IMG/VR virus record: IMGVR_UViG_3300037780_000034
Coordinates: 64,001 to 128,000 of that record
Direction: 5' to 3' (one strand)
DNA length: 64,000 bases
DNA from: a virus
Lineage: Duplodnaviria > Caudoviricetes
Shown here: in pieces, positions 56,834-58,542 of the stretch
Layout of the letters: every line of letters begins with the position of its first letter
Position numbering within the stretch: the first letter of the stretch is position 1
Made by a program: the position numbers and the translations under genes
The notes under the pieces: model-generated
What the model saw: the letters and a program-made list of their open reading frames with translations, nothing else
Database searches by the model: none
What the model was told of the DNA's origin: nothing

Positions 56834-57106
56834 ATGTCTAACAAACAAGAATTGGATTCAGATGTATTGATTGGAAAAGTAATATATTTAATGTCAGATA
56901 TAACAGAAATAATGGCAAATGAAAAATTTACATTAGAAGAAAGAAAATACATACATATGTTATATAGAAACTATATTGTATATTCTGCTCTAACTGATAC
57001 GTTACCTTCAAACGAATCATATGTAGTAACAAACAAAGTATTGCCTAATAACCCGTGTTATATTTCAAAAGATATAGATGTAATTAAGAAATGGAAAGAT
57101 GAATGA
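56834..57106 (+). CDS. hypothetical protein
   Basis: 90 aa, ATGA overlap with the cca N-part. Confidence 0.55.
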
Positions 57107-57450
57107 AAATATTTATGGTAGGTGGTTCAATTCGTGATAAACTAATGCATCGTCCTTGTGAGGATTATGATTGGTTAGTTGTTGGTTCATCACACGATGA
57201 AATGATAGAAAATGGATTTGTTCAAGTAGGTGCAGATTTTCCTGTATATTTGCATCCTGAATCAAAACAAGAATATGCTCTTGCTCGTGTAGAAAAGAAA
57301 ACAGGCAGTGGTTATCTTGGGTTTGATACAATACATCAAAGTGGAAATCTTAATCCAAAATTATTGCAAAAGTTTGTTGATCTTGGGTATGATCCAGAAA
57401 AAGAATATAATATTAATGAGTTAATGACAGTTTTCAAAAATATGAAATAA
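57103..57450 (+). CDS. cca: CCA-adding enzyme, N-terminal part (catalytic motif A)
   Basis: [12 protein letters not shown]...DYDWLVVG...[11 protein letters not shown]...[18 protein letters not shown], then about 40 non-homologous aa and TAA. Confidence 0.88.
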
Positions 57451-57460
57451 TTTGTTTATG

Positions 57461-57489
57461 TTGACAGCATAGACAAATAGTCATATAGT
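57461..57489 (+). promoter_or_regulatory. sigma70-type promoter between the two cca parts
   Basis: TTGACA-17nt-TATAGT; GATTC at 57492-57496; GGAG SD before ATG 57514. Confidence 0.75.
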
Positions 57490-57513
57490 GTGATTCAGAT
57501 TGGAGTGAGTATA

Positions 57514-58542
57514 ATGATAAAATTAAAAGACTTTGTTGATTTGATTTCGGATTTACAACGCAGGGATTTATCAATTAACAGTATTGCAGTTGGTCCAACT
57601 GATGAATTTTGCACTATGGTTGATCCTTTTGATGGTGAAACTGATATAAAAAATAAAGTTTTACGTCATACAAGTGATGCATTTATGGATGATCCTGTTC
57701 GTGTATTACGAATTGCAAGATTCCGTGCACGATTTGGAAGTGATTGGAAGATTGCAGAAGATACAAAAACATTAATTCATAAGATGGGAAAGTCTGGGGT
57801 TCTTGATGAACTTCAACCCGATAGAATTTGGAAAGAACTAAGTCGGGCACTTATGGAAAAACATCCTCGTTTGTTTTTTGACACTCTATTAGAGTGTGAT
57901 GTCTTGCATATTATTTTCCCAGAAATATATGCACTTTGTAGTGCATTGGAAAGTCATAGGTGGCATCCAGAAGGGAATGCATATGAGCATACTATGCTTG
58001 TATTGACACAAACAACTCGTTACGAATTTGGAGAAGAATTTGGTCTATTATTGCGTCTTGCTGCATTAGTTCACGATTTTGGAAAAGGATTGACACCAAA
58101 GGATAAATTACCAAAACATTATGGACACGATGTTAATGGTGTATCAGTGGTTGAAAGTTTTTGTAAAAGGCTTCGTGTTCCTACAGTTATGTGCAATCGT
58201 GTAAAAAAAGCAACACGATATCATATGTATATGCATAAATTAACTGAGTTGAATTCAAAAACTTATGTTAAAATGTTTAGCGATATGAATTCGTGGAATG
58301 ATGAAACCACAGTTGACTTATTGTATTGGGTAGGGATCGTTGATAGTCGTGGCAGGTTGGGAAGTGAACATTGTTCTATTGATGAACTACAGTTACTTCC
58401 AAAAATTTGGAATAATGTTAGAAGTGTAAAGTTTGTTGATGTATTTCCAAATGGTGAGACTGATGTTAATAAGATTAAAAAAGGATTGGAAAACGCTAGG
58501 ATTAATGCAGTAACAGAAGCAAAGAAAGAATTTCAAATATGA
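57514..58542 (+). CDS. cca: CCA-adding enzyme, C-terminal part (motifs B-E plus HD domain)
   Basis: DLQRRDLSIN, DPFDG, DDPVRVLRIARF, DRIWKE, HPEG..YEH, LAALVHDFGKG. Confidence 0.9.
   Translation: MIKLKDFVDLISDLQRRDLSINSIAVGPTDEFCTMVDPFDGETDIKNKVLRHTSDAFMDDPVRVLRIARFRARFGSDWKIAEDTKTLIHKMGKSGVLDELQPDRIWKELSRALMEKHPRLFFDTLLECDVLHIIFPEIYALCSALESHRWHPEGNAYEHTMLVLTQTTRYEFGEEFGLLLRLAALVHDFGKGLTPKDKLPKHYGHDVNGVSVVESFCKRLRVPTVMCNRVKKATRYHMYMHKLTELNSKTYVKMFSDMNSWNDETTVDLLYWVGIVDSRGRLGSEHCSIDELQLLPKIWNNVRSVKFVDVFPNGETDVNKIKKGLENARINAVTEAKKEFQI

Follow-up and report, generated by a model that had tools for sequence, protein, structure and literature searches.

The gene for a class II CCA-adding/repair enzyme (cca) is split into two open reading frames (ORFs) in the window, by which we mean the whole stretch of 64,000 nucleotides at positions 64,001 to 128,000 of virus record IMGVR_UViG_3300037780_000034. 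The full record amounts to 317.7 kb with a GC content of 31%, originates from a pond metagenome and includes a T4 Gp23-type capsid gene and 24 tRNA genes. We propose that the split gene encodes a 'genes-in-pieces' CCA enzyme and that it is probably the functional scar of a mobile homing-endonuclease cassette that later lost its endonuclease gene by deletion. This cause had been missed by a preliminary description of the locus: the split itself, the extra residues on both sides of the break and the promoter between the halves appear to be the remains of such a cassette. The two pieces most likely give rise to two separately initiated polypeptides, CcaN and CcaC, that are predicted by structural modeling to form a heterodimer.

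Both ORFs lie on the plus strand, at 57103-57450 (part 1, CcaN, 115 amino acids) and 57514-58542 (part 2, CcaC, 342 amino acids), and they share a frame, the distance between their starts (57514-57103) being divisible by 3. Part 1 carries motif A with its metal-binding carboxylates (GGSIRD...D21-Y-D23, residues 7-23, 57121-57171), whose columns are invariant in the alignment, followed by motif BxA and the loop residues G68-S-G-Y71 as part of GSGYLGF (residues 68-74), after which 41 further residues lead up to the stop. Residues 78-115 (57334-57447) form a putatively cassette-derived C-terminal tail outside the CCA profile, with the consensus NPELLxKFxDxG[YF]D..EY...L..F. Two stop codons separate the halves, TAA at 57448-57450 and an in-frame TAG at 57478-57480. 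The 63-nt spacer between the part 1 stop and part 2 (57451-57513), which is the site of an endonuclease gene in the related loci L012, L013 and L014, holds a sigma-70-type promoter sequence (TTGACA-17-TATAGT, 57461-57489, with the -35 hexamer at 57461-57466 and the -10 hexamer at 57484-57489; 11/12 consensus match) and the Shine-Dalgarno sequence GGAG (57502-57505), 8 nt ahead of the ATG at 57514. Part 2 opens with MIKLKDFVDLISDLQRRDL, of which MIKLKDFVDLISDLQ (57514-57558) constitutes a putatively cassette-derived N-terminal head, delimited by comparison with intact forms and by the boundary at codon 15 between L012 and the intact locus L015. Motifs B to E follow, among them motif B RRD (R16-R17-D18, 57559-57567) and the nucleotide-templating motif D DDPVR (D59-D60-P-V-R63, 57688-57702, aligning to 3h37), and then the RNA-binding neck and the HD phosphohydrolase domain (57982-58245, residues 157-244, Pfam PF01966, E 2e-10). 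A longer, GTG-initiated frame for part 2 begins at 57490; the ATG at 57514 is probably the true start, since the GTG is located upstream of the transcript start expected from the internal promoter and all homologues use ATG. In addition, ATGA overlaps join part 1 to an upstream ORF of 90 amino acids (57103-57106) and part 2 to a downstream ORF of 165 amino acids (58539-58542), which suggests translational coupling along the operon. The preliminary description had reported the two-part gene with motif A on part 1 and about 40 novel residues behind GSGYLGF, as well as the shared frame, both stops, the promoter and the GGAG, and every one of these items matched.

The two halves jointly make up one enzyme. 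Against the NCBIfam profile NF008137 (multifunctional CCA addition/repair protein, 409 positions), part 1 residues 1-77 align to positions 1-77 and part 2 residues 5-339 to positions 79-406; the enzyme is thus complete and cut once. In Pfam, the poly(A)-polymerase/CCA head domain is divided between part 1, which holds its beginning (profile 1-36), and part 2, which holds its end (profile 86-126) together with the RNA-binding neck PF12627 (E 6e-11) and the HD domain. The catalytic motifs in the halves are intact (motif A, GSGY, RRD, DDPVR and the HD motifs). The separate NF008137 scores, 117 bits for part 1 and 307 bits for part 2, are each below the curated cut-off of 451, which an intact relative (L005) passes with 475. 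No second, intact cca copy was found in the phage genome, and a PDB sequence search with part 1 as sole query gave no match. Compared to the E. coli-type enzyme (NF008137/PRK10885), the halves jointly carry motifs A, BxA, the loop GSGY, B, C, D and HD, yet they are separate polypeptides that add 38 + 4 residues at the break, and neither piece by itself reaches the family cut-off. All 24 phage tRNA genes (24083-150476, G000:C1) encode their own 3' CCA, and the phage enzyme would therefore be a repair rather than a maturation enzyme; judging from these genes, it probably acts in tRNA repair like E. coli Cca.

The split is not an assembly artefact, because a contig from another study (run X3, 57291-57568) bridges the junction. 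It differs by eight substitutions and no gaps, and none of the substitutions falls in either promoter hexamer or in the Shine-Dalgarno sequence. The same split occurs in the independent metagenomic contigs L007, L008/L009 and L004, and the preliminary claim that no single sequencing error explains the break is borne out by both observations. A comparison with related phages, proposed in the same description, located the breakpoint in L004, L007, L008/L009 and L011-L014.

These relatives reveal what has occupied the break. With part 1 as query, six further short proteins were retrieved, and a homologous tail is present in three of them (P0002, P0003 and P0004, being 83, 57 and 56% identical, respectively). 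The part 2 search was bimodal, with 20 proteins of 327-347 amino acids versus 99 of 402-437 amino acids. All 20 short homologues begin with M(x)K..F[VI]DL..D..RRD, where the intact forms read ..EFGVDVTLEEDLxRRD. In L012, L013 and L014 an antisense ORF of 331-333 amino acids is situated between part 1 and part 2 and overlaps the last 32 nt of part 1, so that the gap consists of a 1.0-kb antisense HNH endonuclease gene plus a 68-nt spacer. The contig encoding P0003 likewise has an antisense ORF between the halves. We consider the antisense ORF of these relatives to be a putative Mob-like HNH homing endonuclease. It matches PHROG 655 ('homing endonuclease') and phrog_12434 ('HNH endonuclease') with E about 1e-9, bears the HNH-type motif SHHILP...WNK...DHYYAH and gives a tblastn match to MobE-annotated genes of cultured phages (E 8e-8); Pfam returned only sub-threshold matches (NUMOD3, Tox-REase-3) and a PDB sequence search with this ORF no match. 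The endonucleases of L013 and L014 are 57% identical over their full length without gaps, and the endonuclease gene itself is therefore maintained.

Other loci lack an entire endonuclease gene. In L011 the gene persists, but about 0.53 kb of its interior is deleted. In the window, L007 and L008/L009 the endonuclease is gone and the spacer is kept, leaving 63-180 nt between the halves. In L004 both endonuclease and spacer are gone, and the halves are in different frames with an ATGA overlap. Read in the order L012-L014, L011, then the window, L007, L008 and L004, these sequences form what we interpret as an endonuclease decay series. A tblastn search for an endonuclease copy elsewhere in the genome of the window yielded nothing better than E 0.14, and no record of the phage collection, which covers cultured phages, carries the cassette. 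Two cultured phages have their cca annotated as two coding sequences, namely Pseudaeromonas phage KLEP7 (L002:1758-3002; 178 + 214 amino acids, a 69-nt gap at a different site) and Raoultella phage Ro1 (L003:1271-2517; 82 + 334 amino acids, a 4-nt overlap with a frame change right after the loop). Both were rejected as instances of the same split, being splits of different kinds; the sister Klebsiella phages of Ro1 have cca in one frame, and the frame change in Ro1 could be a sequencing error or a natural frameshift.

The boundaries of the inserted unit can be read from closely related split and intact alleles. The DNA of split L012 is 90% identical to intact L015 up to codon 88 and 87% identical from part 2 codon 15, and between those flanks 1211 nt in L012 stand against 17 nt in L015. 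From this clean replacement it follows that tail, endonuclease gene, spacer and head are one inserted unit. When L011 is compared to intact L016, identity amounts to 95.7% downstream of the cassette and 71% upstream, which indicates a recombination boundary at the cassette. This identity step resembles the mosaic pattern known for nuclease genes at exchange boundaries (PMC10448857). The tails are homologous in nine split loci, with or without endonuclease. Neither the tail (78-115) nor the head fits the CCA profile, being outside it or divergent from it, and their conservation is confined to split forms.

The distribution of the cassette is patchy, as expected for a mobile element. The best 120 part 2 homologues together with the window comprise 21 split and 99 intact forms, and in a tree built from the residues after RRD, by which the trait's own columns are excluded, the split forms are scattered such that well-supported branches force at least 13 changes of state. 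A single clade of split forms is rejected by the approximately unbiased (AU) test (delta log-likelihood 1297, p-AU 8e-9). Since the tails are homologous while the split forms are scattered, one cassette would have moved among cca alleles, or would have been lost by conversion from intact alleles, many times. That the putative endonuclease cuts alleles lacking it and is inherited preferentially may be supposed from this patchy phylogenetic distribution only.

Purifying selection acts on both halves. For the pair of window and L007 (synonymous divergence dS about 0.85) the ratio of nonsynonymous to synonymous substitution rates (dN/dS) is 0.14 for the whole of part 1 and 0.15 for part 2; the core of part 1 has 0.09 and its tail 0.29, with an excess of synonymous changes in the tail (p 0.023). 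The preliminary description had named relaxed selection as the mark of a pseudogene; it was looked for, and these low ratios were obtained instead, which argues that both halves are kept functional. Regarding their assembly, a complex model of CcaN with CcaC reached an interaction score (ipSAE) of 0.77, as opposed to 0.00 for the best control; this mark is reached by 51 of 78 solved complexes and by two of 108 mismatched pairs. At least 97% of contacts agree between runs, and the predicted local distance difference test (pLDDT) score of the partner is 78. In the model, part 2 residues 1-8 touch tail residues 87-112, and those of residues 2-8 are among the contacts of lowest error; residues 21-30 of part 2 additionally make canonical sheet contacts with residues 2-8 of part 1. 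As a prediction, the model check called for in the preliminary description thus supports its two suggestions of a heterodimer and of the novel tail as a dimerisation module, since the modeled tail is in contact with the part 2 head.

The promoter between the halves had been taken as a sign that they are separately regulated. It is the best promoter match within 54500-60500, a region in which promoter-like sites as a class are not enriched (28 found versus 41 expected), and the case for a real promoter rests on its conservation in relatives, from which a function may be assumed. Seven of eight loci have a -35/-10 pair with 17-nt spacing at this position, embedded in sequence that otherwise differs. 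The variants are TTGACA-17-TATGTT in L007, TTGACA-17-TAGTAT in L012 and L013, TTTACA-17-TAATAT in L008 and TTGACT-17-TATATG in L011 and L014, the last being preceded by TGn. The -35 hexamer of L012 and L013 reaches into the opening codons of the antisense endonuclease gene, so that the promoter is a component of the cassette, one that would serve expression of the downstream half and that outlasted the endonuclease deletion. L004 has no promoter between the halves and substitutes translational coupling by its ATGA overlap, and the promoter is therefore not indispensable. Of the suggested separate regulation, a conserved promoter in the gap stands, but L004 implies that such regulation is not intrinsic to the split.

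In E. coli numbering the break falls at residues 77-79, shortly before motif B. Hoffmeier et al. (2010) describe E. coli residues 66-87 as the 'flexible-loop region', in which GSGY are the conserved gamma-proteobacterial residues and Y71 is needed for A addition (PMC2910056); deletion of the loop yields CC-adding enzymes (PMC2910056, PMC7014341). The preliminary placement of the break in the loop between motifs A and B is correct to the extent that it falls inside this region, yet it lies C-terminal to GSGY, which is left intact. Nothing testable speaks for the associated suggestions of a switch between CC and CCA activity or of an HD-phosphatase half acting alone, and both are unsupported. 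Separate CC- and A-adding enzymes, such as those of Aquifex aeolicus, also involve the A-B loop region and share CCA synthesis between two proteins. Those are, however, two full-length paralogues, each with a complete active site, whereas in the present case a single active site would be shared by two fragments, with the conserved loop residues retained.

In the mechanism that we propose, the cassette would insert at positions 77-79 of the E. coli numbering, just ahead of motif B. It would bring the Mob-like HNH endonuclease gene in antisense orientation and a short spacer bearing a ribosome-binding site and a sigma-70-type promoter. The two pieces would also gain new ends from it, the N-terminal piece a C-terminal tail of about 38 amino acids and the C-terminal piece a replacement head of about 15. 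In the phage of the window the endonuclease gene would then have been deleted, with tail, spacer and head left in place. The resulting polypeptides, CcaN with the motif A carboxylates and the loop residues and CcaC with motifs B to E, neck and HD domain, would reassemble non-covalently; by completing the head-domain beta-sheet and by the clasp of tail and head they would form one active site. Transcripts of part 2 would start at the retained internal promoter and would also arrive by read-through from upstream.

Several points weigh against this proposal. The window is without a recognizable remnant of the endonuclease ORF, and the order of events is not provable: an already split gene could have been invaded later, a question that is debated for gene 43 of phages 25 and 44RR (PMC2988022). 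The summed NF008137 score (117 + 307 = 424 bits) is short of the cut-off of 451, and the break takes away the C-terminal anchor of the A-addition loop, such that full CCA activity is not guaranteed. The complex score may partly be memory of solved single-chain CCA enzymes, for instance with regard to the sheet contacts; only the predicted tail-head contacts are without solved precedent, and these come from one model family. For this phage, the case is known from sequence and model alone.

One rival explanation concerns the order of events. The gene might have been split by partial duplication and degeneration, independently of any endonuclease, with a later invasion of the gap by endonucleases in some of the lineages. 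The cassette is indeed flanked by a short repeat of native codons about 80-88 (..EVTI.. on the left, ..FVDL.. on the right), a MAFFT multiple alignment set the tail on the motif B region, from which, together with a tblastn extension into Rheinheimera phage Barba8S, the idea of a duplicate had arisen, and a like doubt exists for gene 43 of phages 25 and 44RR (PMC2988022). Yet the tail was rejected as a degenerate duplicate of the native motif B region when nine tails were compared with 99 intact regions by hhalign (probability 0.2%). The full-length orthology of endonucleases from distant cassette types (57% identity), the loss by deletion in progress in L011 and the patchy distribution, which needs a mechanism of mobility, further make this order of events improbable. 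A gene simply broken by insertion and now decaying is slightly less credible still. It would agree with the two in-frame stops and with pieces that each score under the NF008137 cut-off, but it is largely refuted by dN/dS values of 0.14-0.15 on both halves at a dS of about 0.85, by the persistence of the same split in lineages just 56-60% identical, and by motifs that are all intact next to a start codon, Shine-Dalgarno sequence and promoter that have been kept.

The shared frame of the halves also invites the thought that the 66-nt gap is bypassed or read through, or that the RNA is spliced, to give a single polypeptide. The last sense codon of part 1, AAA (57445), recurs as AAA at 57520, and a 13-bp hairpin (57450-57478, plus strand; with G-U pairs, corresponding to an 11-bp inverted repeat in DNA; -18.2 kcal/mol, z -2.9) begins at the last base of the part 1 TAA and overlaps the -35 hexamer, a superficial likeness to the T4 gene 60 bypass. 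The genome moreover encodes a tRNA with a CUA anticodon in its tRNA cluster (G000:C1:138544-138617, outside the window; amber-suppressor type, called tRNA-Pyl by ARAGORN). The first stop is TAA, however, and a suppressor for it, with a UUA anticodon, was looked for among the phage tRNA genes and none was found. Apart from the window, the matching codon pair is present in its sister L007 alone and is missing from L004, L008 and L011-L014, and the hairpin is not conserved in L007. In L004 the frame changes between the halves, which overlap by ATGA, and in L012-L014 the gap is 1 kb long and occupied by an antisense gene. A group I or group II intron would need far more than the 63 nt of the spacer, an argument from size made in place of an Rfam search, and intein motifs are absent. 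Splicing or bypassing, which the preliminary description had listed as an outcome that would overturn its reading, is contradicted by the TAA, the non-conserved codons and hairpin and the gap layouts of relatives, and is the least probable of the explanations considered here.

The remaining rival, a sub-functionalization or regulatory split, is unlikely as the explanation but could be compatible on top of the cassette origin. The promoter would provide CcaC in excess or at another time, with CcaC acting alone as an HD phosphohydrolase or with the heterodimer tuned between CC and CCA addition. In its favor are the conserved internal promoter, the position of the break at the C-terminal end of the loop region controlling A addition (PMC2910056), a stand-alone HD-only homologue in another phage (L006, 231 amino acids) and the CCA encoded by all 24 tRNA genes, pointing to a repair role where 3'-end healing by the HD domain matters. 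Conversely, the halves of L004 are ATGA-coupled without a promoter, the overlap of the promoter with the endonuclease start region in L012 and L013 makes it part of the cassette rather than a cca adaptation, the conserved GSGY residues are intact, and the alternation of split and intact forms among near relatives points to their functional equivalence. As a tentative extension of the cassette origin, tail and head may be a portable two-peptide clasp that lets a selfish endonuclease split a catalytic core without killing the enzyme. After loss of the endonuclease, the phage would exploit the split: the promoter would uncouple the amounts of the halves, free CcaC would serve as a stand-alone tRNA 3'-end phosphatase, and limiting CcaN would set the CCA-adding activity. 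We regard this extension as doubtful.

The mechanism invoked for the cassette origin is already known from other enzymes (Aeh1 nrdA; T4 39/60 and gene 43, PMC2988022); what is new is the enzyme, a CCA-adding one, and a literature search retrieved no paper describing a genes-in-pieces split for a CCA-adding enzyme. The closest model is Aeromonas phage Aeh1, in which the nrdA-a/mobE/nrdA-b arrangement has an enzyme gene split by a Mob-type endonuclease (Friedrich et al., 2007 PNAS; Crona et al., 2011, PMC3045599). In both systems, a free-standing Mob-type HNH endonuclease gene in a conserved catalytic region leaves the enzyme gene in two ORFs, and the two polypeptides carry insertion-derived C- and N-terminal tails without RNA or protein splicing. 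The predicted tail-head contacts would mirror the experimentally studied tails of Aeh1 NrdA-a/NrdA-b (PMC3045599). Retained function was established by experiment for NrdA, while our argument for cca draws on sequence and modeling. Unlike in Aeh1, the host gene is cca instead of nrdA, the endonuclease is antisense in relatives and deleted in the window, which keeps only the tails, promoter and ribosome-binding site, and the cassette is present in many lineages rather than in one phage. The split gene 43 (43A/43B) of Aeromonas phages 25 and 44RR and T4 39/60 with mobA (PMC2988022) are further T4-type phage enzymes of two polypeptides. The halves of 44RR gene 43 are separated only by an untranslated intercistronic spacer without endonuclease, like those in the window. 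In contrast to gene 43, for which the role of an endonuclease in the original split is unresolved, the decay series described here ties the empty spacer to a cassette. The window adds an endonuclease-free end stage with the promoter retained.

Some observations concern the surroundings of cca and the rest of the genome. The stand-alone homologue of the HD half mentioned above (L006:2980-3675) adjoins a PhoH-like gene on a 96-kb viral contig. Two genes downstream of their split cca, L011 (4051-4455) and L014 (4060-4464) have a PTH2-like (peptidyl-tRNA hydrolase) gene, and KLEP7 likewise has a nearby Pth2 gene, which looks like a tRNA-maintenance neighborhood. Outside the window, the Gp23 major capsid match (G000:C1:260781-261755) comes in two pieces that overlap by 9 nt and cover profile positions 1-61 and 111-375, which may reflect an insertion or a frame change in the capsid gene.

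To our knowledge, Aeh1 NrdA has been the only homing-endonuclease-split enzyme studied biochemically. The same solution is now seen across many phage lineages in a small enzyme whose structure is well understood. For annotation, this means that the two ORFs should be named as one two-subunit enzyme and not as a truncated gene, and for the CCA-enzyme field it offers a natural cut at the C-terminal anchor of the A-addition loop. Together, the loci constitute a natural series that runs from the intact gene through the active cassette and the decaying endonuclease to empty cassettes, one kind with a promoter and the other with translational coupling, and it can therefore be tested how insertion-derived tails rebuild a fragmented active site and what becomes of a host gene after the selfish element has died.

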